Source of the DNA: Candidatus Krumholzibacteriota bacterium
Lineage (GTDB): Bacteria; Krumholzibacteriota; Krumholzibacteriia; LZORAL124-64-63
DNA length: 17,877 nt
Assembly (NCBI GenBank): GCA_039714075.1
Contig: JBDLKA010000077.1
Span: forward strand, 1-17,877
Direction of reading: 5' to 3'
Shown here: positions 1,005 to 17,877 of the stretch, in pieces
How positions within the stretch are numbered: position 1 is the stretch's first letter
Layout of the letters: each line of letters starts with the position of its first letter
Program-made: the position numbers and the translations under genes
The notes under the pieces: generated by a model
Told to the model about the DNA's origin: nothing
Seen by the model: only the letters and a program-made list of their open reading frames with translations
Database searches by the model: none

Positions 1005-1013
1005 GGAGCACCC

Positions 1014-1697: not shown

Positions 1698-1701
1698 CGG
1701 C

Positions 1702-2754: not shown

Positions 2755-3682
2755 CAACATCAGCAACAGGGACCGCCTGGTCACGATTCTCGAGGGAGGG
2801 GTGCCCGACTTCCCGCCCCATTTCGAGATCACTTTCCAACTGGGCAAAGAGTTCTTCGACATGGATTGGCAGCAGGTGAACGAGGCGCCGTATGCATCGG
2901 AAGCGGCCCGGACGGAGGCCCTCGAGGATTTCCACATCGAGCTCCAGCTGCGGTTGATCGAGGAGTTCGACTACGCGGCCGTGCAGCCCCCGAACAGCCT
3001 GGCGGGCATAGAGAAGACGAAGAGGGCGGTGGGGGAGCGGGCGCTGGTCGCGCCGCACGACTGGGACGGGGTGTTCTGGATGCCGGGCGGCAACGAGATC
3101 ATGCAGTTCGTCGAGCGGATGTACCTGCGTCCGGACGAGATGCACGCGGAAGCGCGCACCAAGTGCGACGCAGCCAAGCTGCGCCTGGCGCAGCAGGCCG
3201 ACGCCGGAGCGGACTTCTTCCTGCTGGCCTACGACTTCGGTTTCAACAACGGCCCCTTCATCTCGCCGACGCAGTTCGGTGAATTCGTGGCGCCCTACCT
3301 GGACGAGATCGTCGCCGCCGTTCACGACACGGGCAAGAAGGCGCTGCTGCACTCGGACGGCGACCTGAACCTGCTGCTCGACAGGATCCACGCCACCGGC
3401 ATCGACGGCTACCAGTCGGTCGACCCCCAGGGGAACATGGACATCCGGGCGGTGCGCGAGAGGTTCCCGGACTGGATCCTGATGGGCAACGTGAACTCGG
3501 GCATGCTGCAGTTCACCGACGAGGAGAAGATCCGCGAGTCGGTGGACTACTGCATGGAGCACGGGGGCGTGGGGAAGAGGTACGTCTTTTCGACCAGCAA
3601 CTGCATCTTCGACGGCATGCCGGCCGGGAGCTATCGGATGATGTTGAGGGAGTACCGGAAGTGGGCGACCGATCCGGGATAG
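2738..3682 (+). CDS. URO-D/MtaA superfamily protein
   Basis: GTG start overlaps the previous gene. Motifs DFGFNNGPFISP.QF.EFV.PY, LLHSDG, GIDGYQSVDPQGNMD, LMGNV and FSTSNCI. Confidence 0.88.
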   Translation: MKRPDNNISNRDRLVTILEGGVPDFPPHFEITFQLGKEFFDMDWQQVNEAPYASEAARTEALEDFHIELQLRLIEEFDYAAVQPPNSLAGIEKTKRAVGERALVAPHDWDGVFWMPGGNEIMQFVERMYLRPDEMHAEARTKCDAAKLRLAQQADAGADFFLLAYDFGFNNGPFISPTQFGEFVAPYLDEIVAAVHDTGKKALLHSDGDLNLLLDRIHATGIDGYQSVDPQGNMDIRAVRERFPDWILMGNVNSGMLQFTDEEKIRESVDYCMEHGGVGKRYVFSTSNCIFDGMPAGSYRMMLREYRKWATDPG

Positions 3683-3760
3683 GCGACGGGGTGGCAGCTA
3701 CCGTCTGCGGCTGACTTAGGTCAGATAGCATGTCGAAATGAACTGGGAATTAGACGGGCT

Positions 3761-5053
3761 TCATTCTTGTGCCGCATGCAAACGCGGGTTGTCGAGGCGC
3801 AAGCGGTACATCACTTGATTGTAGTTGTAGCGCGGGGTTTTCTCTGGGGCCCCACTGAACGAATCTGTATAGGTTCCCTCCAAGTAGATGATACGGCCAC
3901 CCTCTTGGTTGAAGAACGTGTGTGTGGCAACATTATAGAAATTGTACCGATCGTGATGAATGATCTTCACGGCCTCGCCGTACGGACCTTCCGGTTGTGT
4001 CGCCTCGGAGTAATAGACATCGCCGGTATCTTCCATAAGCATGATCCAGCGTTTCCGGTACTCGTTCCAGACAACACAGGACGGCCGCGCGCCGCTCGCA
4101 GGCAGCAGAACATCGCGCGCTTCCCATCGGCTTGAATCCTGAATCGCGTTCCAGTCGTCCGGCACGCGCAGCCACGGATAGAGATACCAGTAGCCGTCAT
4201 GCTGGAAGGGGTGAGAGGAGACATGGTGATCGCGGCAAGGCAGTTGCACCCAGGGCTGAAATACTCCCGTCCGGTCATCGAACAGTGCCAAACCACACTC
4301 GTCGGGAAATTTCAGACCATCCTGCCTCGTATATGTAGCGATCAGCCGCTCCTCGCCATTCGGATCAATCATCGGGATCAAGCCCTCGATCCACACCAAG
4401 CCTTTGCTCGGTAAAGGGAGCATTCGCTTCACGCGCCCTTTCGGATCCGTGAAGTAGTCGTAGTTCACCGCTACGTCAGGATTATCGCCAAGATCGCTGG
4501 TTGCCGCCGTAACACTGAAGTTCCAGTATGAAGGCCCAACAGTGTCGCCCCAGATCCAGAAGATCGCGCCCTTGTACACTGCGGCGGAGACCGTATCCTG
4601 GCCGAGCACCAGAGCATTCATCATCGGTTCTTCCAGCGCCACCGGCAAACCTGCCATCTTGCTGTCACGGTAGATACCCTCTCCAGTCAGACGATACAGT
4701 CGTTCGGCGATCATCGTGCGATGGACGCGCAGTTCCAATACTCCGCCGGGTTCGATTCTTGCGTTCACTCCCCGTCCAAGGGGTGTTTCATCCGAATATT
4801 CATAGCCGTGGCTTCGGATGGCGATGAACACCTCACGTTCGATGAACGATGGCTCGTCGATTGCAGCCACGCCGGCGCTGTCGGTCCAGTACTTGACCTC
4901 GTTTGGAAACCTCAACTCAACCAGCGGTACGCCGCGGCCTGTCTCTTGGTCGACTACATGAATCACGAAGTATTCTATCGTCCGGGCGTCGGCGCGAGAC
5001 CAGTGCAATACCGCCGCGATAATCAACGCAATGACCAGCGATACAAGCCTCAA
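3761..5053 (-). CDS. Secreted hypothetical protein, possibly a beta-propeller glycoside-hydrolase-like protein
   Basis: 430-aa ORF with a TTG start and an N-terminal signal peptide (MRLVSLVIALIIAAVLHWSRADA). It has an Ig/CarboxypepD-like start (VVDQETGRGVPLVEL), a WIWGDT motif reminiscent of DUF4185-type FGDT, and short aromatic-rich beta strands. Function is inferred only. Confidence 0.6.
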   Translation of the reverse strand: MRLVSLVIALIIAAVLHWSRADARTIEYFVIHVVDQETGRGVPLVELRFPNEVKYWTDSAGVAAIDEPSFIEREVFIAIRSHGYEYSDETPLGRGVNARIEPGGVLELRVHRTMIAERLYRLTGEGIYRDSKMAGLPVALEEPMMNALVLGQDTVSAAVYKGAIFWIWGDTVGPSYWNFSVTAATSDLGDNPDVAVNYDYFTDPKGRVKRMLPLPSKGLVWIEGLIPMIDPNGEERLIATYTRQDGLKFPDECGLALFDDRTGVFQPWVQLPCRDHHVSSHPFQHDGYWYLYPWLRVPDDWNAIQDSSRWEARDVLLPASGARPSCVVWNEYRKRWIMLMEDTGDVYYSEATQPEGPYGEAVKIIHHDRYNFYNVATHTFFNQEGGRIIYLEGTYTDSFSGAPEKTPRYNYNQVMYRLRLDNPRLHAAQE

Positions 5054-5378
5054 GACGTACCCCGTTTCATTGATTCAGCGGTTCAACGGGAACCATGATG
5101 GTCTTCGTACCCGGTTTTCCTGCAGACAATTCAGGATACCATTTCACGGCCGAACTTCGAGTCAAGCTTTCCTGGCAGGTTTTAATCCCCCTACCCAGGG
5201 GGGTAGATTAGTGAACAAACCCCCCAGCTAGCCCCCCGCTAACCGTAAATGTCTATAAAATTACAGATGCAGGATCTCCGCTACCCGAAGAACGGATGGT
5301 TGGCTGGTTCGAGATTCCATGGTTTAGTTGGTCCGCTCCGGTAGGGCAAGGTTCGAACAAGAAGGATCCGGTAATATC

Positions 5379-7157
5379 GTGCAACTCGACTCTCTTGACT
5401 GGCTGGTCGTGGTTGTTTGCCTCGTTGCGGCCTTTGCGCCGGCGTTGTGGTTTGCCCGTCGTGCCAGTCGCGGCACGGCCGAGTTCTTCGCCAGCGGCCG
5501 CACGGCTCCCTGGTGGTTGATCGGCACGAGCATGGTGGCGACCACCTTCAGTACCGACACGCCCAACCTGGTCACCGATCTTGTACGGTCAAACGGTGTG
5601 GCCGCAAATTGGAGCTGGTGGGCTTTCCTGATTACAGGGATGGCGACGGTGTTCCTCTACGCCCGCCTGTGGCGGCGCAGCGGCGCTCTTACCGACCTCG
5701 AATTTTACGAGATGCGATATAGCGGCCGACTCGCTGCTGTCGTTCGCGGTGTGCGCGCCGTATATCTCGGTCTCGTGTTCAACGCCGTGATCATGGCGAC
5801 CGTTACCCTGGCCGCCGTGAAGATCGCCCATGTTCTGCTTGGCTGGGATCGGGGTACGACACTCGTCGTTTGTTTCCTGTTGAGCGTGGGCTTTTCAGCA
5901 CTGGCCGGCCTCTGGGGCGTGCTCGTGGCGGACCTGGTACAGTTCGCCATCGCCATGATTGGCGTTATTGCAGCGGCGCGGGCCGCCCTGCAGGCGCCTC
6001 AGGTGGGAGGGCTGACTGGTCTGGTCGATCGACTTGATCCGCAGACTCTGGCCTTTTTCCCCGACCCGGGTGACGGAACGGTGTTCGTATCGGTATTGGT
6101 CGTGCCTCTTGCGGTCCAGTGGTGGGCGGTGTGGTATCCCGGGGCGGAACCGGGCGGCGGCAGTTACATCGCCCAGCGCATGCTGGCGGCCCGCGATGAA
6201 AACCACGCCCTGAAGGCGGTTCTCTGGTTCAACGTGGCCCACTATGCCCTGCGCCCGTGGCCCTGGATCCTGGTTGCTCTGGCCTCGCTGTTGGTTTTTC
6301 CGGAACTGTCCGACATCCGTGCCGCTCTACCGCATGTCGACCCCGCGCTGCTCGGGAATGACATCGCCTATCCGGCCATGCTGACGCTCTTGCCCCACGG
6401 ACTGCTGGGTCTGCTGGTGGCTTCACTCACGTCGGCGTATGTCTCCACCATGAGCACCCATCTGAACTGGGGCGCTTCATACCTGGTGAACGACCTGTAT
6501 CGCCGTTTTCTCCGTCCGGACGCTGATGAACGCCACTTGGTGCGGATGTCGCGTCTGGTGACGGTCGGTCTCATGGGCTGCGCCGCGGGGTTCACTCTTC
6601 TTCTTGAGACGGCGGGGGAGGCCTTTCGCCTGCTTCTCTCCTTCGGCGCGGGCACCGGCCTGATCTACCTGTTGCGCTGGTACTGGTGGCGTATCAACGC
6701 CTGGAGCGAGATTTCGGCCATGATCGTGTCATTCCTGGTCACGATCTCGATACATCTGCTCGGGCGGGCCGATGTCATCAGGCTGGGGTCGGACGCGACC
6801 CTGCTCTGGACGGTCGGGATCACCACCTTTGTCTGGCTGGCCGTGACTTTTATGACGCCGCCCGTCGATCGAACCACTCTCGCCGCGTTCGTCCGCCGCG
6901 TCCGCCCGGCGGGGCCCGGTTGGCCGGGATTCACGAGCGACGATTCGCTACCGGCCGACAACCTGCCGCGCGCCCTGCTCTCCTGGTCCCTGGGCTGCCT
7001 GTCCATCTATGCGGCGCTGTTCGCAATCGGCAGTTTCCTCTACGGGTATACGGCAAGGGGCTCTTCCCTCGGTGTGCTGGCCGTCGTGGCCTTCCTTGCG
7101 TTGAACCGGTTTTCGAGGGGACCCAAGGACCAACCCCCAGGGATCCGGGTCAGATAG
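5379..7157 (+). CDS. Sodium:solute symporter (SSS) family transporter
   Basis: Probable start is the GTG at 5379 (MQLDSLDWLVV) after GAAGGA. Motifs EFFASGR..PWWL.GTSMVATTFSTDTP and YIAQRMLAA.DE, with many hydrophobic TM segments. Confidence 0.92.
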   Translation: MQLDSLDWLVVVVCLVAAFAPALWFARRASRGTAEFFASGRTAPWWLIGTSMVATTFSTDTPNLVTDLVRSNGVAANWSWWAFLITGMATVFLYARLWRRSGALTDLEFYEMRYSGRLAAVVRGVRAVYLGLVFNAVIMATVTLAAVKIAHVLLGWDRGTTLVVCFLLSVGFSALAGLWGVLVADLVQFAIAMIGVIAAARAALQAPQVGGLTGLVDRLDPQTLAFFPDPGDGTVFVSVLVVPLAVQWWAVWYPGAEPGGGSYIAQRMLAARDENHALKAVLWFNVAHYALRPWPWILVALASLLVFPELSDIRAALPHVDPALLGNDIAYPAMLTLLPHGLLGLLVASLTSAYVSTMSTHLNWGASYLVNDLYRRFLRPDADERHLVRMSRLVTVGLMGCAAGFTLLLETAGEAFRLLLSFGAGTGLIYLLRWYWWRINAWSEISAMIVSFLVTISIHLLGRADVIRLGSDATLLWTVGITTFVWLAVTFMTPPVDRTTLAAFVRRVRPAGPGWPGFTSDDSLPADNLPRALLSWSLGCLSIYAALFAIGSFLYGYTARGSSLGVLAVVAFLALNRFSRGPKDQPPGIRVR

Positions 7158-9123
7158 TGTCGATCACGTGTTGCATCGCCTCCCGGGAAGCCAGCAGGGC
7201 TTCCAGCAGGGACAGTTGAGCTCGAGCTCGCCTCAGATTGTGCCCGGGCTCGTCGACCGGATAGTAGATATCGCCCCCCAGATGGTCTGCCAGGAAGCGT
7301 AGTGACTGTTCGTAGGTGATCACAATGGCGCCGGCAACCAGTTGAAACCGCTCCGGTCTGCTGATCCAACCGTCGGCGCCTTCCAGATAACCCGAGGCCA
7401 GATCGTGAAAGATATCCTCCCGTATGGTGATAAGGTCCGGATCAGGTTCGTCTTCGGGCCGACCTGTGACCGAAGAGCGCACGAGGTCGCCGAAATCGAA
7501 GACAGCGCAACCCGGCATGACCGTGTCGAGATCAACCACGCAAAGCGCTTTGCCCGTCTCGGTATCGACGAGAACGTTATCGAGTTTGGCGTCGTTATGG
7601 ACCAGGCGCACAGGCAGGCTTTCCCGCGGCAGGGAACCGGCCAGCGACGCCAGGGCGACGAGGCGATCATACTCCGGGCGGCAGGTCCCGAGCCGACCGT
7701 GATTGTCGGATTCCGCGCTGGATCGGAGGGCCGCCAACCGGCTCGGCGTGTCGTGAAAACCGGGCAGGATTTCCCGCGGTCTCGGCCCTGGTCCCTCGTT
7801 GACCAGTTCCAGGAATTGACCGAGGAGTCTGGCCGCGTCGAATATCTCGGCGGAATTCGTGCAAAGGGGCGGGCGGGAGTCGGGGATCAGGGCGGCTACG
7901 CGCCAGACGTCGCCGTCGTCGTCGCGCAGCCAGGGACGATCTTCAGACCCTTCGCGGAAGGTAAGGCGTTTCCGGGGGTCGGCTTCGCCGCGCCGGCGCA
8001 AGGCTTCGTCCACGCGCCGGGCGGCCACGGCGGCGTTCTCGGCCACGGCGATCGGGTCGGGGAAAACACGATGGTTCAGGCGTTGCACCAGATGCGGGCC
8101 CTGCACCGTGTCCACACGCCAGGTGGTGTGGATCAGGCCTTTGCCGAAGGGCCGGGCCGGGGAATCGGCCACATCGAGGCCGAATTGCCGGATGATACGC
8201 AAGGGGCTCTCCAGCTTCTCCAGGCGCCTGGCCACACGCTGGCGGTCCCGGGGCCAGGTCATTCCGCACCAGGAATCCGGAGCCGTCCTTACGCGCACTC
8301 CGGCCTTCCCGGATCTGATGGCGCGATCGACCGCCGCCGGGAGATGGCACTCGTCGGTCTCGAGATTCGCGGTGGCCAGGAAGTCCGTCAGGCAGTCCTC
8401 GAGCAAGGGGAAGATGTCGGGCGTGAAGGCCCAGGCATTCATCGACACGGGCTTGTCCTGGGGCAGGCTCGACCCGCGTTCCGGCCCGGTCGTGATACGT
8501 CCTTCGCCGTCGATGGCCAGGTGTTCTTCGAGGGCAATAAGCCAACCGTCATCGTCCACCTCACAGACGGCCCGTGAGACCGTCCCTTCCCTGGACAGGG
8601 TCGAGGCGAGGGGATAACCAAGCATGGCGAAAATGGGACCGGCGACCGCCTCGGAATCGGTTTCCGTCAGGGCGGCGGCCAGAGCGGTCGGAGCATTCGG
8701 ACCGTAGTGGTCGTCGGCGTTGAACAACAGGAACGGGCCCGTCACGGCGCGGCGGACCGACCAGGCCGCGTGAGCGGTTCCCCAGGGTCTGGTCCGACAA
8801 ACCGGGGATGGCGAGGGCAGGTCGTCGGGTATCTGCAGGACGACGTCGAGCTGGAGATCCCGAATCGGACGCGCTGCAAAGAGTGAGCGAATGTCACGCT
8901 CCAGCTGCGGGGCCGTGACGATCACGGCGTGGCGGCAGCCGGCACGATGGGCGTCGCGCAGCGTGACTTCCAGGAGCGTCGCACCGTCCGGAGCAACCGG
9001 CACCAGCTGCTTGGCGCCTCCGAAGCGATGGCCGACGCCTCCGGCAAGAACAACAACCTCCAGGTCGGCGGTTCCCCGAGGCTGAGAGGAATTGTCCGGT
9101 AGCCCTGTTTTGCCGGCGTTCAT
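7150..9123 (-). CDS. Fusion of an N-terminal sugar-phosphate nucleotidyltransferase and a C-terminal APH/choline-kinase-fold N-acetylhexosamine 1-kinase (NahK)-like domain
   Basis: N-half motifs: VVLAGGVGHRFGGAKQL, RPWGTAHA, NADDHYG, GTVSRAVC, VSMNAWAFTP. C-half motifs: G.GLIHTTW, QRLN..VF, LPGFHDTP, HNDAKLDNVL, VDLDTVMPG..FDFGD, LRFLADHL.GD.YY, HNL.RARAQ. One uninterrupted 657-aa frame. Confidence 0.85.
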   Translation of the reverse strand: MNAGKTGLPDNSSQPRGTADLEVVVLAGGVGHRFGGAKQLVPVAPDGATLLEVTLRDAHRAGCRHAVIVTAPQLERDIRSLFAARPIRDLQLDVVLQIPDDLPSPSPVCRTRPWGTAHAAWSVRRAVTGPFLLFNADDHYGPNAPTALAAALTETDSEAVAGPIFAMLGYPLASTLSREGTVSRAVCEVDDDGWLIALEEHLAIDGEGRITTGPERGSSLPQDKPVSMNAWAFTPDIFPLLEDCLTDFLATANLETDECHLPAAVDRAIRSGKAGVRVRTAPDSWCGMTWPRDRQRVARRLEKLESPLRIIRQFGLDVADSPARPFGKGLIHTTWRVDTVQGPHLVQRLNHRVFPDPIAVAENAAVAARRVDEALRRRGEADPRKRLTFREGSEDRPWLRDDDGDVWRVAALIPDSRPPLCTNSAEIFDAARLLGQFLELVNEGPGPRPREILPGFHDTPSRLAALRSSAESDNHGRLGTCRPEYDRLVALASLAGSLPRESLPVRLVHNDAKLDNVLVDTETGKALCVVDLDTVMPGCAVFDFGDLVRSSVTGRPEDEPDPDLITIREDIFHDLASGYLEGADGWISRPERFQLVAGAIVITYEQSLRFLADHLGGDIYYPVDEPGHNLRRARAQLSLLEALLASREAMQHVIDTI

Positions 9124-10544
9124 CTCACCTCGAGCTGCCGGCGTGCCGCTTCGATCTCATGAACGGGCAGCAGTGCCGGATCCACATCGACCACCTGAAG
9201 CGGTTGGTTGGTCTGCCAGCGGCCGCGGGTGAAATCCGGTATCCGCTGGGAGTTTGATCGATGACCCACCGACGCGATGCTCAGTGGCACCACCGCGCTC
9301 CACGCCGCCGCGTCGTACACGTCCTGATCCAGCGGCAGCCCGTTCTTCAGACAGTAGATCAGCCTGTAGTCCATGATGAAGTCCATGCCGCCGTGGCCGC
9401 CAACCTTCCTGGCGATGTCACCGATGGTCCGGGTCAAGGGGTGCCGGTACTTCTCCTCGAGTTGGGCGAAGATCTCGTCATCGACCCAGCGGTGGCCATG
9501 TTCGTGCAGGCAGATGCCCTTGCGGGGCCACTTGCGAGCCATGCCCAACGAACCCTGCAACAGGTGGATTCGGCTATACGCGCGGGGGGTGCTCGTGTCG
9601 TGCTGCACCATCACGGTTTGGCCATTGGCACACTTTATCAGGGTAGTGTTCATGTCACCGCGGTAGGTGGGCAGATCACTGAACTCGGTGTTGCCCGTCT
9701 GCCGGGCGTGTTCGGTGAACGCCGCCTCCTGGCTGGACATGCTGGTCAGGTAGTCGAACGTGTTGCCCCGGTTTATGTCCAGACACTGGGCCACGGGCCC
9801 CAGCCCATGGGTGGGATAGAGGTTGCCGTTGAAGCGGAGATTGTGCTTGATGCGCCAGTTTCCCTGGTAGATCTCCCGGTCGTCTTTCGGCTGCATGTAG
9901 TCCACCAGCGAGTGGATGTAGGCGCCCTCGGCGTGGGTCAGCTCGCCGAACACGCCCTGGCGCACCATGTTGAAGGTCATCAGCTCGAAAAAATCATAGC
10001 AGCAGTTCTCCAGCATCATGCAGTGCTTGCCGGTGCGTTCGCTGGTGTCGACCAGGCGCCAGCAATCGTCGATGGTGGTGGCTGCCGGCACCTCGACCGC
10101 TGCGTGCTTGCCGTTTTCCATGGCGCCCACGGCCATGGGTACGTGCCACTCCCAGGGGGTGACGATGTAGACCAGATCCAGGTCCAGCTGGCAGAGATTG
10201 CGCCAGTCCTCGGGTCCGGCGGTGAACCCCTGGGCCAAAGGCCGGCCATGGTCTTTCAGGATGTTTTGGGTGTGGTCCACGCGGTCGGGCCGGATATCGC
10301 ATAGGGCGACGATGTCCACCCCCCGAATCTTGATCAGCCGCTCGACGGCGCCGGGTCCGCGCATGCCCAGGCCCACCACGCCTACGCGCACTTTTTCCAT
10401 GGCAGGTGCGGTGAAGCCGCACATGTTTCGGCGCGAACCGGTGGAGGGAAGCATCTGGCAGCCGGACAGGTTCCAGCTACCGACGGCACCCGCGGTGAGG
10501 GCCAGCAGCTCGAGGAATCGGCGGCGCGGCAATTGGGCACTCAT
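9120..10544 (-). CDS. GH109 NAD+-dependent alpha-N-acetylgalactosaminidase-type enzyme (Gfo/Idh/MocA fold), Tat-exported lipoprotein
   Basis: Twin-arginine RRRFL and lipobox LSG-C29. Rossmann VGVVGLGMRG, TPWEWH, EVPAA, MMLENCCY, YPTHGLGP, catalytic GGHGG and DVYDAA.WS. Its stop overlaps the next start (ATGA, 9120-9123). Confidence 0.92.
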   Translation of the reverse strand: MSAQLPRRRFLELLALTAGAVGSWNLSGCQMLPSTGSRRNMCGFTAPAMEKVRVGVVGLGMRGPGAVERLIKIRGVDIVALCDIRPDRVDHTQNILKDHGRPLAQGFTAGPEDWRNLCQLDLDLVYIVTPWEWHVPMAVGAMENGKHAAVEVPAATTIDDCWRLVDTSERTGKHCMMLENCCYDFFELMTFNMVRQGVFGELTHAEGAYIHSLVDYMQPKDDREIYQGNWRIKHNLRFNGNLYPTHGLGPVAQCLDINRGNTFDYLTSMSSQEAAFTEHARQTGNTEFSDLPTYRGDMNTTLIKCANGQTVMVQHDTSTPRAYSRIHLLQGSLGMARKWPRKGICLHEHGHRWVDDEIFAQLEEKYRHPLTRTIGDIARKVGGHGGMDFIMDYRLIYCLKNGLPLDQDVYDAAAWSAVVPLSIASVGHRSNSQRIPDFTRGRWQTNQPLQVVDVDPALLPVHEIEAARRQLEVR

Positions 10545-10612
10545 TACTTCTCCACTTTGGGTAAAGGATACTTCAACATGGGCCAGGCACGGATCAGGAG
10601 GTGACGTGATCG

Positions 10613-11944
10613 CTACCGAATCAAGGTAATGCGGCCGTTCTGCTCGAACGATTCGGACCTCAGGCGATAGAAAAAGACCCCGGAGCCGACTTCCAGCCCC
10701 CGGTCGTCGCCGCCGTCCCAGATGATCTCATGGGGACCCGCACTTCGAATCTCGTTCAGCAACCGACGAACACGCCGTCCGGAGACATCGAAGATCTCCA
10801 GCGTGACATTCTCCGCTGTCGCCAACCGGAAGGCTATTCGGGTGCTTGATTGGGCCGGATTCGGCCAGGTGGAGGCGAAGGGCGATCCAAGGGGTTCGCC
10901 GGTCGAATCCCGGGCTCCCGATACACTGGAGCAATAGGTGTCGAACGCATCGCGAGCAGTGTTCATGAACGTATACGACGTCGCCTCCGGTAGATTGGCG
11001 GTTGGAGTCGTGTACCAGGACTGGATCGTGATGACATCCGGGAAGATCGAATCCTGGACAAGACGGTTCATGTAGGAAATCGTCCCCGTGTAGAACTGCC
11101 AGTATCCAGAGCGCGGTTCCGCATTCACCACGAGGTGAAAGGCGATTCCTCGGTCCCGACACCAGCCCTGTATGCTTCTGAACTTCGTCGGATTATCGAC
11201 ATCCGCGTCGTTGTTATGCGTCCTGTTGGCGATGTAGTATTGATACGGACAGTCTACCTCGAAAAAATCCAGCGTATATCCGGCATCGACCAAGGCCGTA
11301 TATACGGTGTTCAACGCATCCAGGTAATAAACTCCGGTCTGGTCGGTGAAGTTGGGAAAAGGCTGATAACCAGGCAGTTCGGGGGTGAAGTCCCAGTTGG
11401 GAAGGTTCGAGATGAGCCCGATGCGGGCGTTCGGGTACTTGGCTCGGCACATCCCCCAGAACTCGACGATCTCGGCCGCGGCCTGTTCGAGATCGACCGT
11501 CGGATTCGCGATCATCATCAGCCGCCGAATGGGACCATCCAGATGTATGGCGGTGACTTGTCCACCGGCGGAAAAGACCGGATCCAGCTGCTGCTCGGCG
11601 ATGCCGAAGTTGTAGGCTGCGTTATCACCTGAAGGGAAATCGCCGTATTCGCAGGCGATGTCGATTCCATGCTGATCCATGAAGGCCACCATGCCCGCGG
11701 TATCGATCGGCCCGCACCAGGAATACATGCACCCGTAGTATTTGAAAAAATCGATTTGATCCGCGACCGTGGACCACTGGGAATAGGAGGTGAACAACGA
11801 GTCGACCGATGTGCCGTTCACATGGGATGGCGCCACGCCTATCTCGGTGAAGGGGCACGACCGCGCCGGGTCTCCGCAGCCAAAAGCGAAGACCACCGCG
11901 AACAGCACCTGAACGACGAACCGGGCAAAGGGCGAGCTATTCAT
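10613..11944 (-). CDS. Secreted protein with an uncharacterised N-terminal (probably TIM-barrel) domain and a C-terminal FlgD-Ig/T9SS-type sorting domain
   Basis: Hydrophobic N-terminal signal. C-terminal PNP...T.I.F.L......LEIFDVSGRRVRRL......G.H...WDG.DD.G..V.SGVFFYRL is the typical FlgD-Ig/Por-type tail. Confidence 0.8.
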   Translation of the reverse strand: MNSSPFARFVVQVLFAVVFAFGCGDPARSCPFTEIGVAPSHVNGTSVDSLFTSYSQWSTVADQIDFFKYYGCMYSWCGPIDTAGMVAFMDQHGIDIACEYGDFPSGDNAAYNFGIAEQQLDPVFSAGGQVTAIHLDGPIRRLMMIANPTVDLEQAAAEIVEFWGMCRAKYPNARIGLISNLPNWDFTPELPGYQPFPNFTDQTGVYYLDALNTVYTALVDAGYTLDFFEVDCPYQYYIANRTHNNDADVDNPTKFRSIQGWCRDRGIAFHLVVNAEPRSGYWQFYTGTISYMNRLVQDSIFPDVITIQSWYTTPTANLPEATSYTFMNTARDAFDTYCSSVSGARDSTGEPLGSPFASTWPNPAQSSTRIAFRLATAENVTLEIFDVSGRRVRRLLNEIRSAGPHEIIWDGGDDRGLEVGSGVFFYRLRSESFEQNGRITLIR

Positions 11945-12077
11945 TGTTCCACATCATCCTGTTGACTGCAGGGCCTGGTCTCTTCGCGGGATCATCGCCG
12001 GTTTGTGCCTCAGTGAGCAGATCCCCGGCAAGCCCGCAGCCTATGACATTAGCACAGGGACAAGGGTTGCAAACCCT

Positions 12078-13307
12078 CTATTGGCCGAAGAAGAGATAGC
12101 ACACCAGGATCGCGGCCGTCACGCCGGCCAGGTCCGCGGCCAGTCCGCAGATCACGGCGTGGCGACTGCGCTTTATCCCCACCGCTCCGAAGTACACGGC
12201 AAGGACGTAGAAGGTCGTTTCGGTGCTGCCCTGGATGATACTGGCCAGGCGGCCGGCGAACGAGTCGGCGCCGTGGGTCTGCATGGCTTCGACCATCATG
12301 CCGCGCGCCCCGCTGCCCGACAGGGGTTTCATGAAGGCGGTGGGCAGCCCGTCGATGAAGCGGGTGTCGATGCCGATTCCTCCGGCCGCCGATCGCAGCC
12401 CGTCCAGGACCAGGTCGAGCGCGCCGCTGGCTCGGAACACCCCGATCGCGACCAGCATCGCCACCAGATAGGGGATGATGCCGACGGCGACCTTGAACCC
12501 GTCCTTGGCGCCCTCGACGAAGGTCTCGTAGAGGTTGATCCCGCGTTTGATGCCCCCGGCCATGAACGCGATGATCACCGCGAAGATCAGGAAGTTCGCC
12601 AGGATCGAGGACTGGGTTTCCATGGCGGCCCGGTCCAGGCGGCTGAACCATACGACCAGACCCGCGATCAGCGCGGTCATGCCTCCGAGGTAGCCGAGGA
12701 CGACCGGATCGTACAGGCGGATCTTCTGGAACAGGCTGGTGATCAGCAGCCCGGCCAGGGTGCTGCAGTAGGTGGCGATCAGGATCGGCAGGAAGATGTC
12801 CGTCGGATCGGCCGCGCCCATCTGCGCGCGGAAGGTGAAGATGGTCACCGGCACGATCGTCACCGCCGAGGTGTTGATCACCAGGAACAGGATCTGGTCG
12901 TCGGAAGCGGTTTCCTTCTCGGGGTTGAGTTCCTGCAGTTCGCCCATCGCCTTCAGGCCCAGCGGCGTGGCGGCGTTGTCCAGTCCCAGCATGTTGGCGG
13001 CCATGTTCATGACGATGCTGCCGCTGGCGGGGTGCCCTGCGGGGATGCCGGGGAAGAGTTTGCGCAGCAGCGGGCCGAAGATTCTGGCCAGGAAATCAAC
13101 CGCGCCGCCCTTTTCGCCGATGCGCATGATGCCCAGCCACAGGCACATCACGCCGGTCAGGCCCAGGGCGATCTTGAAGGCGGTTTCGGCCATGTCGAAG
13201 GTCGAGCCGACAATGTCGCGCCAGACCTCGGTGTGGCCCATGAAGGCACGCGCGATCGCGGCGGCGAAGCCTCCGATGAAGAAGAAGGTCCAGATCCTGT
13301 TGAGCAT
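12078..13307 (-). CDS. spmAB: SpmA/SpmB fusion, nucleoside-recognition (Gate) domain membrane protein
   Basis: SpmA part: MLN.IW, NMAANMLGLDNAATPLGLKAM.ELQ.LNP. SpmB part: YE.FVEGAKDGF, KPLSGSG, QGSTETTFYVLAVYFG.V. Confidence 0.92.
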   Translation of the reverse strand: MLNRIWTFFFIGGFAAAIARAFMGHTEVWRDIVGSTFDMAETAFKIALGLTGVMCLWLGIMRIGEKGGAVDFLARIFGPLLRKLFPGIPAGHPASGSIVMNMAANMLGLDNAATPLGLKAMGELQELNPEKETASDDQILFLVINTSAVTIVPVTIFTFRAQMGAADPTDIFLPILIATYCSTLAGLLITSLFQKIRLYDPVVLGYLGGMTALIAGLVVWFSRLDRAAMETQSSILANFLIFAVIIAFMAGGIKRGINLYETFVEGAKDGFKVAVGIIPYLVAMLVAIGVFRASGALDLVLDGLRSAAGGIGIDTRFIDGLPTAFMKPLSGSGARGMMVEAMQTHGADSFAGRLASIIQGSTETTFYVLAVYFGAVGIKRSRHAVICGLAADLAGVTAAILVCYLFFGQ

Positions 13308-13355
13308 CCGTTCTCCAGGTTTACGGTGGCAGGTTCGGGCCGGAATGGCTGAATA

Positions 13356-13394
13356 AAACCTGCGGCGGGGCCAGCATAGCCCCGCCGCAGGTTT
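13356..13394 (-). terminator. Intrinsic terminator hairpin downstream of the beta-barrel gene, possibly bidirectional
   Basis: Perfect 16-bp inverted repeat AAACCTGCGGCGGGGC / GCCCCGCCGCAGGTTT with a 7-nt loop. The minus strand reads ...GGTTTTATT after the stem, about 40 nt past the stop at 13436. Confidence 0.8.
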
Positions 13395-13435
13395 CTGTCA
13401 TTCCCAATCAGCGGAAGCTGTGGGTGACCAATGAC

Positions 13436-14005
13436 TCAATAGGCCAGCCAGCTGACCGTGACCATCACGTTGGAAATGGTCCAATCAATCCCCTCGATGT
13501 CATTGTCCCCCGACACTCCCGAGTGTATGAGGGTGAGTTCGGCGATGACGTTCCGGGCAAATTCGAACCCGACACCGAGTGTAATTCCGAATCCCGACAT
13601 GGTTTCATCGACATCGCGGTCATTGACGACACCCACGCCCAGGCCTCCCGAAAAGAACACGGACGGGGCCTGGGGCTCCAGAAAGTAACTGACACCCGCC
13701 GCCGACATGCCGTTCGTCAATTTCCAATCAATCCCGGCTACCTCGGGGGTGTACCAAAGGGCCCGGTTGGTGTAGTAGAGAAGGACCTGGCTGCTGAGTC
13801 CACCGCCGATCTTTAAATCCGTCCCGAATCCCATGGCATCGAACGAGGCGCTGGCCCCGAATCCCGATGCTGACAATTTACCCTGTCCCATCCCCGCCCC
13901 GAGGTTCAGCATGAACCCATTTCGGTCCCCGTCGAACGCCGAGGCGGTCAAGGGAGCCACCAACAGAAACAATACCGTGGTAAGAAACAGAGCCTTAATC
14001 TTCAT
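13436..14005 (-). CDS. Outer-membrane beta-barrel protein (OMP_b-brl/OmpA-like TM domain)
   Basis: Probable start is the ATG at 14005 (MKIKALFLTTVLFLLVAPLTASA signal peptide) after AAGGAG. Gly- and aromatic-rich alternating strands, and a C-terminal ...VTVSWLAY aromatic beta-signal. Confidence 0.8.
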   Translation of the reverse strand: MKIKALFLTTVLFLLVAPLTASAFDGDRNGFMLNLGAGMGQGKLSASGFGASASFDAMGFGTDLKIGGGLSSQVLLYYTNRALWYTPEVAGIDWKLTNGMSAAGVSYFLEPQAPSVFFSGGLGVGVVNDRDVDETMSGFGITLGVGFEFARNVIAELTLIHSGVSGDNDIEGIDWTISNVMVTVSWLAY

Positions 14006-14178
14006 TCTTTTTCTCCTTATTAATTGTTTGGCGATTGGGACTGCAGGAAATTTACCAGCCATAATGATTTACTGTCATCAACAATGTTTTACCCCAGGAA
14101 TCCCAATTGGTGTGGCTTGATTCGGTGCCTGTGGCTACAGTGGGCTTGTGGCGGAAACAACATGAGAGGCCGTTTGGA

Positions 14179-15015
14179 ATGGAAACCGTTTGGGCAGGCA
14201 CACTGAAGAAAATGCGGGTGGAAGCCGCTGCTCCGGTGGAATACCACTTCACCGACGGCTGGTGGGAAAAAGAGAACCGCGCGACCGATCACGGAGTGAA
14301 CGACCATCTGGGCAAGCAGTTGGTGATCCGCTTTTCCGGCGAGATCAACTGCACCGCCTGCGGCCGCAAGACCAGGAAGACCTTCGCCCAGGGTTACTGT
14401 TTTCCCTGTTCCATGTCGCGGGCCGAGGCGGACATCTGCATCATCAAACCCGAGATGTGTCATTACGGCCAGGAAGACAACCCCTGCCGCGACGAGGAAT
14501 TCGCCCGGTCGCAGTGCTTCCGTCCGCACATCCTGTACTGTTCCATGACCAGTGGCGTGAAGGTGGGGATCACGCGGGAACCCAACGTGCCTTCGCGGTG
14601 GATAGACCAGGGGGCGGTGGCGGCCATTCCCGTGGCGCGCATGGCGGACCGGCGCACCGTCGGCCTGGTGGAAAAACGTCTCATCGGCGAGGGCTTTGCG
14701 GACAAGACCCACTGGACGCGCATGCTCAAGGGGAATCCCGAGGATTTCGACCTGGCCGGGGCGGTGGCCAGGGTGGTGGCCCGTTTGGAGGATTGGGGCG
14801 AAGAGGGCATCCTGCCGGAATCCGAAAGAAGGGAACACCGGTTCGAGTACCCGGTGCTCGACTGGCCGACCAAGGTCAAGAGCTTCAACCTGGACAAGGA
14901 TCCCGAGGCCGGCGGCGTGCTGCAGGGCATCAAGGGGCAGTACCTGATTTTCGACGGCGGGGTGATCAACCTGCGCAAGTACGCCGGTTACAAGGTGGAG
15001 ATCCTGGCCGGCTGA
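14179..15015 (+). CDS. DUF2797 domain-containing protein (Cys-rich)
   Basis: Probable start is the ATG at 14179 (METVWAGTLKKM). Motifs G.I.C..CGRKT.K.F.QGYCFPC, CI.KPE.CH...CRDEE....CF.PH..Y, KVGITR....RWIDQGA, DKT.W..ML and L.GIKGQYLIFD.GVIN.RK..GY. Confidence 0.85.
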   Translation: METVWAGTLKKMRVEAAAPVEYHFTDGWWEKENRATDHGVNDHLGKQLVIRFSGEINCTACGRKTRKTFAQGYCFPCSMSRAEADICIIKPEMCHYGQEDNPCRDEEFARSQCFRPHILYCSMTSGVKVGITREPNVPSRWIDQGAVAAIPVARMADRRTVGLVEKRLIGEGFADKTHWTRMLKGNPEDFDLAGAVARVVARLEDWGEEGILPESERREHRFEYPVLDWPTKVKSFNLDKDPEAGGVLQGIKGQYLIFDGGVINLRKYAGYKVEILAG

Positions 15016-15043
15016 TTTTCGTGTCTCCGGTGATTGACCGATC

Positions 15044-15078
15044 GGCCCGTCCCGTCCCCGGGCGGAGCCTCTTTTTTT
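15044..15078 (+). terminator. Probable intrinsic terminator after DUF2797
   Basis: GC-rich imperfect stem GGC-CCGTCC / GGGCGG-A-GCC followed by TCTTTTTTT, about 30 nt after the stop. Confidence 0.6.
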
Positions 15079-15199
15079 GACTCCTGGATGTCCAGTTCGG
15101 AAACAACCCATTCCATTTTAACAATCTGCGGCAAAACCTGGTTCCGGAATACGCCCTGCAAAGGGTCCGCCTGTTCACGAGGCAAGGACGCCACCCGAC

Positions 15200-15205
15200 A
15201 GGAGG
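15200..15205 (+). promoter_or_regulatory. Strong Shine-Dalgarno for the 87-aa peptide
   Basis: AGGAGG lies 7 nt upstream of the ATG at 15213. Confidence 0.8.
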
Positions 15206-15212
15206 AAACAGA

Positions 15213-15476
15213 ATGAATCAGAAAACGAATCCCCAGGACAACCAGCAGCCCGACCTTGAGGCGAGCCTCAGAAGGCTTGGCATCAGGGAGCTCGAGGAAC
15301 GCATGGAGATCAGTCCGCTGTTGACCGATACCGGCACCACGGCCACCGATCCGGATGTACCTTCGATCTGCTGTACCTGCAAGATTCCCGATCCCTTCGG
15401 CAAGGACGGGACGCTGCCTTATCCCACCATCGATCTCGGCCCCACCGGTCCCACGAATCCCAACGGGATGTGGTAG
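15213..15476 (+). CDS. Small peptide, putative RiPP precursor
   Basis: 87 aa with a perfect RBS. Amphipathic/acidic leader-like segment DLEASLRRLGIRELEERMEISPLL, a Thr/Asp-rich linker, a CCTCK cluster and a Pro/Gly/Thr-rich tail. Its stop overlaps the next start. The precursor role is inferred from context. Confidence 0.75.
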   Translation: MNQKTNPQDNQQPDLEASLRRLGIRELEERMEISPLLTDTGTTATDPDVPSICCTCKIPDPFGKDGTLPYPTIDLGPTGPTNPNGMW

Positions 15477-16675
15477 TGCCGACCTCCGGTGACAGCCGCC
15501 CGCCGCGGTCCGGATCTTCGCGGAGTTCCGGACCCGGCCGGCGGGACGGCAAAACGGCGGCCGATATCCGCGGGCAGTGGAGCGAGGCCGACTTCACCTG
15601 GGAGTTATGGAATCTACGGGCCCTGCTGCCCGATGCCTGCCGCGGTGATCTGCTGGATATCAAGCTCCGGCAGGAACTGGTGCTGGCAAGAGAGCGGGAG
15701 GCTCTTGCCGGTCTGTGGACCGGGGACCGGGACATCCTGGCCCCGGGCCACGGCTTTCTGGAGCGGAACCCGGAGCTGAAATCCGGGGTGACCGTGTCCA
15801 TGCACCTGGGCCCCTACCAGCTTCTGGCGGAACCCTTCCTGGCCGCGGGCCTGGAGCCGGTGATCCTGCTCAACAGCCAGGCCATGAAATCCTTCCAGCC
15901 GGGGACCAGGGCCCTGGTCCACCATCTGGGGTATCGCACCAGGATCCAGTGGGTGCCAGTGGGCGGCCGGGGATTTGTCCGTGCCCTGGTGCGGGCCGTC
16001 AGATCGGGCCGTCCGGTCCTGGTTTACCTCGACGGCAACAGCGGGGAAAAGGGGATGGAGGAAACCCGCAACCGCGGCTTGAAGTACAGCCTGCCCGGCC
16101 GCGACATCAGGGTCCGCACGGGATTGGCCAAACTGGTGTGCCGGCTCGGCTGTCCCGTACACCGTGTGTCGCTTCACTGGTCCGATGAATGGGATCTGAT
16201 CTGGCGCCGGGACCCCACCTTGACCTGGGGCCGGAGCGATCATCCCGACGTGGTGACCCGGGTGCTGTTCGACTGGTGCTTCGGCCGGATCATGGCCCGG
16301 CCCGAGCAATGGCAGTACTGGGCCATGCTGCGGGAATCCAGCGCGTGTTTCGGCAAGGGCCTGGGCGATGAAATCCGCGTTCCCGCGGGCCTGCGGTCCG
16401 ATTTCCGGAAATCCTTCGTGGCCTGCCTGGAAGGATCGCCGGAAACGGTGCGGATGATCCTGGAAAAGGAGATTGAGATATGGACGGGTGATGTGCTGGC
16501 CGATCTGACCGAGGACCGTTTCTATCCGGCGGACGGCATGAGCGACGAGGACCTCGACCCCCTGCGCGAAGGCCAACCCACCCTGGCCGAATTGACGTCC
16601 TACCACGGGGAATCCTGGGTCCGGTTCCATGGCCTGCGGCTCTGCCTGCTGGGCATGGCCCGGTTGGGCGGTTGA
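15470..16675 (+). CDS. LpxL/HtrB-like (LPLAT/LABLAT) acyltransferase with a C-terminal extension, possibly RRE/PqqD-like
   Basis: Motifs G...VSMHLGPYQ (H-G-x-Y/W block), .L.RA.RSG..V.VYLDG, V.TG.AKL....GCPV and I...PEQW.YW. GTG start at 15470 or 15476, overlapping the peptide stop. Confidence 0.75.
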   Translation: MVVPTSGDSRPPRSGSSRSSGPGRRDGKTAADIRGQWSEADFTWELWNLRALLPDACRGDLLDIKLRQELVLAREREALAGLWTGDRDILAPGHGFLERNPELKSGVTVSMHLGPYQLLAEPFLAAGLEPVILLNSQAMKSFQPGTRALVHHLGYRTRIQWVPVGGRGFVRALVRAVRSGRPVLVYLDGNSGEKGMEETRNRGLKYSLPGRDIRVRTGLAKLVCRLGCPVHRVSLHWSDEWDLIWRRDPTLTWGRSDHPDVVTRVLFDWCFGRIMARPEQWQYWAMLRESSACFGKGLGDEIRVPAGLRSDFRKSFVACLEGSPETVRMILEKEIEIWTGDVLADLTEDRFYPADGMSDEDLDPLREGQPTLAELTSYHGESWVRFHGLRLCLLGMARLGG

Positions 16676-16678
16676 AGG

Positions 16679-17877
16679 GTGACGCCGGTCCTGGAAATCG
16701 TTTCGCATCCCACGGGGCCCTGGTTGGTGAAGGCGGGGAACATCATGTACGCGGTGCCTCCCCGGCTCGGCCGGGCGTTGCGGCCCCTGGCGGGGCGGTT
16801 GCCTGCCCGCCGGGAAATCCGCAACTGCCTGGCCGAAGTCCGGCGGGGCCATGAACTGTCAAAACCTGAAATCGATACCTGGGTGGATGAACTGGGTCGC
16901 GCCCTGGCACCCGACCCCGCGCCGGCAAAGGGCCGGGCCGGGCTGCGCCGGGTCGGCCGTCCCATCCGCCTGCGCGTTCCCCTGGTTCCGGCCCCCGTCG
17001 TGCGCCGTCTCGCGGGCATTCTGCGCGTGCCGGCCGGAAACCGTGGCCTGGTGTTCGTGGCCGCGTTGGGTTTGGCGGGGTACGTGGCGGCGGGATACAT
17101 GGCGGCCGGGTCCTGGCGGGTCGGGTTCTCCTGGGACCTCGAAACCGCGGCCGCCGGGCTCGGCCTGTTTCTTTTGACCGCGGTCTGGCACGAACTGGGT
17201 CACGCCGCGGCCCTGGCCCGGTCGGGATACCCCCCGGGGGGCATCGGGGCCGGGGTGTTGTTCGTGATTCCGGTCCTGTTCGCCGACGTTACGGCCATGG
17301 GCGTTCTGCCGCGGGCCGGCCGGATCCGGGTAGATGTTTCCGGAATGATCTTCCAATTGGGGGCCGGAGGTTTTCTCATGGCGCTGGCCGCCTGGGGTGG
17401 CGCCGACCGGGCCTGGACCCCGGCCCTGACCCTGGCCGGATCGTCGGCCCTGCTGGCGATTTCCTGGAGCCTGTTCCCCTTCCTCCATTCGGACGGCTAT
17501 TGGCTGCTGTGCGATCTGCTGGGACTGGAAAGCCTGGACCGCCCGCCGGCCGAACCTGCGGGAAAGGGTCTACGGCTATTTTTGGTGGGGTATCAGCTGA
17601 CCAACGCTGCGTTTCTGCTGATGATCGGAGTATTTTTCCCCTGGAAAATGGTGGGGTTGTTGGGTGGTTTGGTCCAGCATCTGGGTTATTCCCTGGATTC
17701 AGCGACCGGGCGGTGGGTGGCTGTTGCAGTGGGTTTCGGGTTCGTGGCCATGCTCGGGGTGGGCGTGGCCCACAGGGTAATGGCCCTGATCCGCTCGGCA
17801 CGCGCCGGCATACTGGATATCACTGCGAAAAACGCCCCCCGGGGGGCATTTGGGGACAATAAATATGTTGTCAATAG
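16679..17877 (+). CDS. M50 (site-2) membrane zinc metallopeptidase, YydH/EpeP-like, 3'-truncated by the window
   Basis: Translated by hand from the GTG at 16679 (MTPVLEIVSHPTGPWLV...), with no stop before the window end. HELGH at 17189-17203, then G..G.G..FVIPVLFADVT, RIRVDVSG and SLFPFLHSDGYWLL.DLLG at about 17468-17524. Several TM helices. Not in the supplied ORF track. Confidence 0.88.
   Translation, partial: MTPVLEIVSHPTGPWLVKAGNIMYAVPPRLGRALRPLAGRLPARREIRNCLAEVRRGHELSKPEIDTWVDELGRALAPDPAPAKGRAGLRRVGRPIRLRVPLVPAPVVRRLAGILRVPAGNRGLVFVAALGLAGYVAAGYMAAGSWRVGFSWDLETAAAGLGLFLLTAVWHELGHAAALARSGYPPGGIGAGVLFVIPVLFADVTAMGVLPRAGRIRVDVSGMIFQLGAGGFLMALAAWGGADRAWTPALTLAGSSALLAISWSLFPFLHSDGYWLLCDLLGLESLDRPPAEPAGKGLRLFLVGYQLTNAAFLLMIGVFFPWKMVGLLGGLVQHLGYSLDSATGRWVAVAVGFGFVAMLGVGVAHRVMALIRSARAGILDITAKNAPRGAFGDNKYVVN

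Follow-up and report, generated by a model that had tools for sequence, protein, structure and literature searches.

A candidate ribosomal peptide pathway in Krumholzibacteriia that pairs an LpxM/PatA-fold enzyme with a membrane protease related to leader peptidases

The end of a stretch of contig JBDLKA010000077.1 from a Candidatus Krumholzibacteriota bacterium (assembly GCA_039714075.1; the whole stretch, positions 1 to 17,877 of the forward strand, is referred to as the window) carries three co-directional and coupled plus-strand genes that form a cassette of about 2.7 kb and encode a small peptide, a 401-aa protein and a membrane protease with an HExxH motif. We read this cassette, with a probability of roughly 55%, as a three-gene pathway of the type that makes peptides synthesised by the ribosome and modified post-translationally (RiPPs), vertically inherited in Krumholzibacteriia and expressed from its own sigma-54-type promoter, in which leader-guided acylation would be followed by leader removal. 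At the genomic level the cassette is a well-supported candidate for a new RiPP class, the chemistry of which is a prediction. Direct support comes from gene order and its conservation, the leader and core pattern of the peptides, the fold and conserved histidine of the 401-aa protein, the family of the protease, and the promoter and terminator in front of the peptide gene. An earlier note on this DNA had proposed a lipidated-RiPP system composed of a precursor, an LpxL-like acyltransferase and an M50 peptidase; the sigma-54-type promoter and an extra C-terminal domain of the enzyme go beyond that proposal.

The coupling of the three genes described in the earlier note is borne out by the list of open reading frames (ORFs), its translations and its coordinates (Table 1): the start of the 401-aa gene overlaps the TAG stop of the peptide gene (15474-15476), and the GTG of the protease gene at 16679 begins 3 nt beyond the TGA of the 401-aa gene. 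The perfect ribosome-binding site ascribed to the 87-aa peptide is also present, as an AGGAGG ahead of its ATG. A scan of one genome per species in the GTDB set with two motifs of the enzyme family yielded 43 loci, each from a bin of Krumholzibacteriota type, although some bins go under another label. A precursor ORF lies upstream of the enzyme gene in 38 of the 43 loci, and a protease homologue lies downstream of it in 40. Four of the five loci without a precursor start inside the enzyme gene, and two of the three without a protease (L026 and L032) end within 300 nt; the remaining one in both counts is L038, the only locus that lacks peptide and protease despite having room for them. Two further loci, L011 and L030, have two precursor genes each. 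Enzyme homologues almost always stand between an ELEER-type ORF and an HExxH protease, the neighbourhood for which a search had been suggested, and the arrangement in these related loci is far beyond chance.

The small proteins look like RiPP precursors on alignment, since they combine a shared leader with a variable core that carries a cysteine motif, and are encoded beside a tailoring gene. Precursor lengths range from 64 to 99 aa. Across 40 aligned precursors, L19, L22, R30 and E32 of the leader block are invariant and the core varies, with C54 conserved in at least 90% of the sequences. The window peptide matches no model in Pfam or NCBIfam, and its hydropathy profile has no hydrophobic segment and consequently no signal peptide. 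A precursor profile matched 124 small proteins at E<=0.01 in a wider database, none of which is named. The possibility that the peptide might be neither conserved nor translated, raised in the earlier note, is not borne out: it is conserved, and it carries a coding signature and a Shine-Dalgarno site. Pairwise differences in the leader block amount to 0.383, 0.162 and 0.468 for the three codon positions, and GGAGG or AGGAG stands a few nucleotides upstream of most precursor starts (read by eye from the printed sequences and uncounted; four start choices, with GTG starts, are wrong), which together support translation of the small ORF.

Core classes were sorted by script over the best 120 of the 124 profile matches, to which the following counts refer. 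The CC[TVS]CK core (class A) is found in 63 homologues, a C..KC core such as CCHDKCSGND in 39, and a CxCxxC core without lysine in three. The script left 14 as 'other' and P0316 unplaced, the latter looking like CC[TVS]CK by eye; among the 14, seven carry a single-cysteine CG[TS]YKED core, two are one residue off CC[TVS]CK, one has no cysteine, and P0350 looks truncated or frameshifted past its first cysteine. Judged from these sequences, the common denominator of the core narrows to one cysteine followed by a lysine 1-4 residues on, with the exception of the CxCxxC class. Apart from two homologues, one with a misfired leader anchor and the one without cysteine, the first cysteine lies 9-19 residues past the leader block; with eight homologues set aside, the distance is 13-19 residues. 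A fixed spacing of this kind is what an enzyme tethered to the leader would impose. The single-cysteine CG[TS]YKED subgroup (P0383-P0392) stands behind the same leader. On the enzyme tree, the C..KC core corresponds to one clade (support 100/99), the lysine-less core to two clades, and CC.CK to the rest, including the deepest branches. The tree requires 4 changes of core class against 13.3 in shuffles, which, because related sequences share labels anyway, indicates stability within clades and not co-evolution.

We propose that the cassette is its own transcription unit, with a covarying terminator upstream and a conserved GG-N10-GC element before the peptide gene. The terminator predicted earlier between the DUF2797 gene and the cassette appears in a single-sequence scan as a hairpin of 6 pairs, 5 of them GC, followed by a T-run, a call that is weak alone (1 site against 0.7 expected in shuffles). 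An alignment of 15 loci shows the consensus hairpin and T-run to be kept, with compensatory changes in 5 of the 9 predicted pairs, and this covariation upgrades the call; the register of the window copy is shifted relative to the 15-locus consensus. As for the promoter, the 110 nt upstream of the precursor gene contain GG-N9-TGC in 39 of 40 cases, mostly between -56 and -87, and the stricter GG-N8-TTGC (typical form TGG-N8-TTGC) in 35 of 40, compared with 20% and 4%, respectively, of random 110-nt windows from the same loci. Spacing and sequence of GG-N10-GC fit the -24/-12 consensus of sigma-54 promoters, and the element, as a sequence match, would imply control by an enhancer-binding activator. 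None of the window ORFs scanned against Pfam and NCBIfam encodes an enhancer-binding protein. A sigma-70 promoter scan of the region 14900-15500 returned 0 sites, and Rfam gave 0 matches over the whole window, so that known riboswitches and leader RNAs are absent from it. A TGTC-N10-GAC(A) dyad, which may be bound by an activator or regulator, follows the DUF2797 stop and precedes the terminator, some 110 nt upstream of the -24 element; its GTC and AC columns are identical in 15 of 15 aligned loci, and it is also conserved in a 23-locus alignment. The aligned loci share a further conserved GTC in the terminator loop.

The designation of the 401-aa protein as an LpxL-like acyltransferase stands as far as the fold is concerned, which matches LpxM and PatA, but the window protein itself falls into no Pfam family at E<=0.01. 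As Pfam misses both this protein and the protease of the window, the two are assigned to families by way of their relatives, profiles and folds. NCBIfam likewise gave nothing for the 401-aa protein at E<=0.01 (its PatA model is reached at 0.039), and both phmmer with the enzyme and a profile of the family returned 0 hits in the PDB. A word-indexed search gave 190 relatives, with identities of 52-86% in the best 120 of 190; among the matches listed, they come from Krumholzibacteriia bins and are named 'hypothetical protein', 'lauroyl/myristoyl acyltransferase' or 'lipid A biosynthesis acyltransferase'. In an exhaustive HMMER search of 1.84 billion cluster representatives, E<=1e-30 was reached by only 20 clusters and E<=1e-10 by 29, beyond which follows a tail of distant proteins that match enzyme residues ~100-290. 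Of 15 tail proteins scanned, 11 match PF03279 at E<=0.001, two of them just under the gathering score, and the same family is matched by 21 of 31 aligned family members (best E 3.5e-8). The AlphaFold (AF2) model built on the family alignment has a predicted local distance difference test score (pLDDT) of 83.2, and its top structures in Foldseek are LpxM 5kn7 (E 5.6e-8) and PatA (1.4e-7), at a probability of 1.00 and a target-normalised template-modelling score (TM-score) of 0.55-0.64. A profile that combines the family with its distant relatives reaches PatA at E 6.8e-11 and LpxM at E 7.8e-4, and aligns the family HxGPY block, which contains His112, on HSGNWD of PatA. H112, D188, G189, N190, R216, T217 and G218 are invariant in the family alignment; over 44 aligned family members and distant relatives, the motif histidine is still invariant and D188, G189, G192 and G218 are kept in at least 90%. 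On the predicted structure, the LpxL-superfamily fold and the conserved catalytic histidine are established, and the canonical dyad is not. The hydropathy profile of the 401-aa protein shows no hydrophobic or transmembrane segment, hence no membrane anchor. Residues 1-27 (15470-15550) are predicted to form a disordered tail (pLDDT <50) with an Arg/Ser/Gly/Pro-rich motif in most family members, the consensus of which is R..RSG..RSSGP.RR.

Behind the catalytic domain, the last 100 residues of the enzyme are conserved in 41 sequences and are modelled at a pLDDT of 95.1 as a helix, then four short strands, a further three helices and one last strand. We hypothesise that this domain resembles a RiPP recognition element (RRE), although its likeness to known leader-binding domains is weak. 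The order of its secondary structure, strands and then three helices, fits an RRE, and its best fold matches, all non-significant, are LynD, TbiB1 with leader, NisB, TbtB, TruD, MadB, ThcOx and the winged helix of YcfD. LynD, NisB, TbtB, TruD, MadB and ThcOx bind leaders through an RRE, and the title of the TbiB1 entry in the PDB itself states a complex with a leader peptide. A search of the ESM Atlas with the domain gave no usable hit. Many distant LpxL-like proteins in the representative library (P0152-P0213, 300-410 aa) also have a strand-rich C-terminal extension, for example ..F....YLLD...Y..Y.I, that can be aligned to the domain's first half, so that a peptide-binding-like tail may occur more widely on enzymes of the LpxL fold.

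The third gene encodes a protease with a soluble N-terminal domain of ~120 aa, followed, on hydropathy, by at least five hydrophobic segments. Its only two NCBIfam matches are both models of RiPP leader peptidases: daptide_HExxH, the daptide biosynthesis intramembrane metalloprotease (E 1.3e-21, residues 13-362 on positions 17-371 of the 379-position model, with a score of 77 bits that is far under the model cutoff of 300), and the YydH/LiaK epipeptide model (E 1.5e-6, residues 163-286). The HExxH motif is intact in every full-length homologue, and a profile of the N-terminal domain gave only chance-level hits in the PDB. What the earlier note took for an M50 peptidase of the YydH/EpeP type is an HExxH membrane protease that groups with RiPP leader peptidases and matches YydH/LiaK, but the daptide MpaP type is closer, and the window protease has no Pfam hit even at E<=10, hence none to PF02163, the family under which the daptide paper places related peptidases (10.1101/2023.03.08.531785).

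Beyond the protease, where the window ends, the earlier note had expected that more genes of the system might follow. In relatives, the genes that come next are two tandem Smr-domain genes (PF01713), a short-chain dehydrogenase/reductase (SDR) gene, found in 32 of 43 loci, and the folate genes FolB and HPPK. Further downstream members of the cassette were considered and rejected because all of these are housekeeping genes, none of them plausible as a RiPP gene, and the cassette accordingly appears complete with three genes. The tandem Smr genes directly follow the protease in many loci, for example at 7357-8040 in L001 and 12268-13113 in L005. Upstream, 35 of 43 loci have a DUF2797 gene that runs in the same direction: adjacent in 24 (gap 163-315 nt), 955 nt off in the frameshifted L040, and 1.8-7.5 kb away in 10. 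DUF2797 was rejected as a member of the cassette on account of the covarying terminator in between, its distance in those 10 loci, and its persistence in L038. No lpx or lipopolysaccharide (LPS) gene was found among the window ORFs scanned or the annotated neighbours of relatives; instead of the lipid A or LPS loci considered in the earlier note, the surroundings consist of DUF2797, Smr, SDR, FolB and HPPK. Pairwise identities of the acyltransferase and the SDR correlate (r = 0.56, reached in 0 of 2000 permutations), and the GC content of the cassette is 0.64-0.67 against 0.57-0.68 in other 1-kb blocks of the window. Recent horizontal transfer is therefore not indicated, and the cassette is better regarded as an old, vertically inherited part of the lineage.

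A few loci depart from this pattern. In L038 (~9800-12800), the enzyme copy is divergent, with 37% identity and a long branch of 1.2, and stands directly after DUF2797, with an SDR next; the locus keeps the GG-N10-GC element, and its sequence would fit either decay of the cassette or its repurposing. L040 (9653-11829) has frameshifts in precursor and enzyme, and the protease is split over frames in L003 (11101-12228); both loci derive from 'MFD' isolate-named assemblies, and the cause may be decay or indel errors. In L008 (7587-9448), a 1.9-kb insertion between enzyme and protease contains a 395-aa minus-strand ORF without a Pfam hit.

From these data we infer that the C-terminal domain binds the leader and that an acyl group is passed to the peptide, and likewise which residue accepts it, in which order the steps run and what role the product has, as follows. 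The ribosome would make a precursor of 64-99 aa, the conserved leader of which would be bound by the C-terminal winged-helix domain of the enzyme. This binding would place the cysteine motif of the core, 9-19 residues past the leader, in the LpxM/PatA-fold active site. The enzyme, soluble or peripheral, would use His112, probably together with the invariant Asp188 of a DGN motif or with Glu121, to move a fatty acyl chain onto the core, with acyl carrier protein (acyl-ACP) or coenzyme A (acyl-CoA) from primary metabolism as the donor. Most likely, the chain would be accepted by the thiol of the conserved cysteine, or by the lysine that follows 1-4 residues later in most classes. A metalloprotease similar to MpaP of the daptide pathway would then recognise the same leader through its N-terminal domain and cut at the membrane, yielding a lipopeptide that is either membrane-associated or released.

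Several observations weigh against this pathway. All sequences come from metagenome bins. Genes for a transporter, for immunity, for an acyl carrier and for acyl activation are all missing from the cassette, and its synteny and co-inheritance with housekeeping genes are unusual for clusters of specialised metabolism. The CxCxxC core class lacks lysine, and one listed homologue lacks any cysteine. Regarding the C-terminal domain, Foldseek gave 0 hits at E<=0.001 (best E 0.5-2.6, TM-score 0.42-0.52), a profile of the domain had 0 hits in the PDB, Pfam scans of 41 copies produced scattered chance-level hits and no PqqD or other family at E<=0.01, and hhalign related it to the N-terminal domain of the protease with a probability of 0.5%. 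The window 401-aa protein reaches its best Pfam family, PF01553, only at 0.056. Finally, the HX4(D/E) motif is incomplete, since the position of the +5 acid is taken by Q117, which varies among Q, N, R, K, H and P in the family.

The last two of these points, together with the lack of acyl-donor genes in the cassette, could also be read as signs of a RiPP pathway whose enzyme does not acylate. It would be a degenerate, non-catalytic scaffold from which the protease, or an enzyme encoded elsewhere, receives the leader-bound peptide, or would carry out other chemistry on the cysteine motif, and the product would be a cysteine-rich peptide without lipid, perhaps metal-binding or disulfide-linked. 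Clusters of cysteines are typical metal ligands, and the daptide pathway offers a precedent in the accessory protein MpaB, which has a C-terminal RRE. We regard such a pathway as unlikely. The missing +5 acid means that catalysis needs another acid, for which D188 (invariant) and E121 (at least 90%) are alternatives, and PatA works with a histidine plus a distal glutamate. The retention of the motif histidine in all 44 sequences, and of D188, G189, G192 and G218 in at least 90%, at an overall identity of 50-86%, argues for a working enzyme. Moreover, LpxL-family enzymes take their donors from primary metabolism, and thus need no dedicated donor genes.

Alternatively, the cassette may not be a RiPP pathway at all, the enzyme acylating a membrane lipid or glycolipid, in the way that LpxL/LpxM act on lipid A and PatA on phosphatidylinositol mannosides, the HExxH protein acting as a site-2 protease in regulated proteolysis, and the small protein being its regulator or substrate. 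The closest solved structures are indeed lipid and glycolipid acyltransferases, some sources name homologues 'lauroyl/myristoyl acyltransferase', and both the sigma-54-type regulation and the housekeeping-like vertical inheritance in a conserved chromosomal neighbourhood would suit such a function. To this explanation we give little credence, given that the annotated neighbours include no lpx or LPS gene, the enzyme lacks a membrane anchor, and the best, albeit non-significant, fold matches of its extra domain are RiPP leader binders. The small ORF, for its part, is translationally coupled to the enzyme and combines a conserved leader and a variable core with a fixed spacing of the cysteine motif, while the best family matches of the protease are the two leader-peptidase models; core classes also track the enzyme tree, with the reservation about shared labels made above. 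Least probable of all is a RiPP pathway with only transient acylation, a (thio)ester on the core being removed or resolved into a macrocycle (thiolactone, lactam or lactone) to give a cyclic product: the pairing of cysteine with a nearby lysine in most core classes (C-x0-3-K) would suit S-to-N transfer or a Cys/Lys linkage, but one class has no lysine, no LpxL-family enzyme is known to form a transient acyl group for cyclisation, and the data do not separate transient from stable acylation.

Within the acylating RiPP pathway, a more specific version can be put forward, tentatively and at somewhat less than even odds, in which an enzyme of the lysophospholipid acyltransferase (LPLAT)/LpxL fold was recruited through a fused leader-binding domain and fatty-acylates an internal cysteine, as a thioester, or the adjacent lysine of a ribosomal peptide, the product being a vertically kept, sigma-54-regulated lipopeptide. 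If this is true, the cassette would represent the first RiPP class with the LPLAT/LpxL fold as its defining feature and, possibly, the first dedicated S-acyltransferase for peptides in bacteria; RiPP biosynthesis would gain a new enzyme family that defines a class, the fold of lipid A and glycolipid acyltransferases would prove retargetable to peptides by fusion to a recognition domain, and the enzyme-leader pair would be usable as a tool for site-directed peptide lipidation. Vertical inheritance throughout Krumholzibacteriia points to a physiological role of the product, for instance as a membrane-anchored metal binder or a signal, and not to an antibiotic; lineage-wide inheritance and sigma-54-type control together raise the question of what a conserved peptide does in an uncultured phylum. 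The system would escape genome-mining tools, since database entries call its proteins 'hypothetical' or 'lipid A acyltransferase'. As the cassette is small (three genes, ~2.7 kb) and has no accessory requirements, it is directly testable by heterologous expression.

The remaining genes of the window, outside the cassette and DUF2797, are unrelated to the cassette. Positions 3-3682 contain a set for corrinoid-dependent methyl transfer, in which three URO-D/MtaA-like ORFs flank a B12-binding protein, and a sodium/solute symporter is also encoded (Pfam and NCBIfam). These and the features of the cassette are collected in Table 1.

Table 1 Features of the window, with positions counted from its first nucleotide.
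Feature	Position	Strand	Remarks
B12-binding protein	1014-1697		Best NCBIfam match glycine-betaine corrinoid protein MtgC, E 1e-46, under its cutoff
Fusion of nucleotidyltransferase and APH-type kinase	7150-9123	-	
GH109-like GFO/IDH/MocA oxidoreductase	9120-10544	-	
Protein with type IX secretion system (T9SS) C-terminal sorting domain	10613-11944	-	
DUF2797 gene	14107-15015	+	Pfam E 5.6e-82
Dyad TGTC-N10-GAC (TGTC-N10-GACA in several relatives)	15022-15038	+	Just past DUF2797 stop
Intrinsic terminator of DUF2797 gene	15047-15078	+	GC-rich hairpin, then T-run
Sigma-54-type element GG-N10-GC (GGAATACGCCCTGC)	15146-15159	+	67 nt before peptide ATG
Shine-Dalgarno AGGAGG	15200-15205	+	7 nt 5' of peptide ATG, read from sequence
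Precursor peptide gene	15213-15476	+	87 aa, ATG start
Leader motif L19-L37 (LRRLGIRELEERMEISPLL)	15267-15323	+	Consensus L..LG..ELEER.E.SPLL
Core motif C53-C54-T-C56-K57	15369-15383	+	Precursor alignment
Gene of 401-aa protein, LpxM/PatA-fold acyltransferase homologue	15470-16675	+	GTG 15470 (alternative in-frame GTG 15476), stop TGA 16673-16675; catalytic domain residues ~28-290
Invariant His112 codon	15803-15805	+	Family alignment
C-terminal 100-aa domain of 401-aa protein	16373-16672	+	Candidate RRE-like winged helix, predicted structure
Protease gene	16679-17877	+	GTG start, 399 codons, no stop, incomplete at 3' end
HELGH motif H171-H175	17189-17203	+	Protease sequence

Several known systems share parts of this cassette. 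Neither the peptide nor the enzyme is covered by a model in NCBIfam release 20, and searches of an open-access collection, judged from listings and abstracts, turned up no paper that connects RiPPs with LpxL, with lipid A acyltransferases or with the LPLAT fold, and none on this cassette in Krumholzibacteriota. The closest parallel is the daptide system (MpaA/MpaB/MpaP), in which, according to its description, the leader peptidase is an intramembrane site-2 protease with an RRE fused to its N-terminus, and a DUF protein with a C-terminal RRE is encoded beside it (Ren et al., bioRxiv 10.1101/2023.03.08.531785). The two systems have in common a short precursor with a conserved leader, a protein on the tailoring side whose last ~100 residues form an RRE, shown for daptides and proposed for the 401-aa enzyme, and an intramembrane HExxH protease of the site-2 type, which in daptides is fused to an RRE and removes the leader, and which in the window matches daptide_HExxH. 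Unlike the daptide system, the cassette has, in the Pfam and NCBIfam scans, no oxidative decarboxylase, aminotransferase, alcohol dehydrogenase or methyltransferase, the C-termini of its precursors are variable without a conserved terminal threonine, and its tailoring enzyme has the LpxM/PatA fold. The epipeptide locus yydFGHIJ likewise uses a membrane HExxH protease to mature a small ribosomal peptide, but it includes a radical-SAM (S-adenosylmethionine) epimerase and an ABC transporter that the cassette lacks, and only the catalytic core of the protease matches.

Among acyltransferases, LpxL/LpxM and PatA (5kn7, 5f2t) share the fold of the 401-aa enzyme at an identity of only 16-18%. PatA lacks a transmembrane anchor, and the 401-aa enzyme resembles it in this respect. 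Compared with these proteins, the 401-aa enzyme misses the +5 acid and adds both the C-terminal 100-aa domain and the Arg/Ser/Gly-rich N-terminal tail, and its genomic partners are a peptide and a protease, whereas those of LpxL/LpxM and PatA are lipid A or glycolipid genes. Selidamides, goadvionins and nostolysamides are N-acylated by GNAT-type enzymes. A 2025 preprint describes diacylglycerol-RiPPs (DAG-RiPPs), made by the lipoprotein pathway, and states that the lipidated RiPPs known besides these carry their acyl groups on side chains or at the N-terminus (PMC12636315). The end result proposed here, a ribosomal peptide with a fatty acyl group, would be common to all of them. The pathway in Krumholzibacteriia would differ from DAG-RiPPs in that its window precursor has no lipoprotein signal peptide, and from known lipidated RiPPs in general in that its proposed acyltransferase has the fold of the LPLAT/LpxL superfamily and its likely acceptor is an internal Cys/Lys motif.

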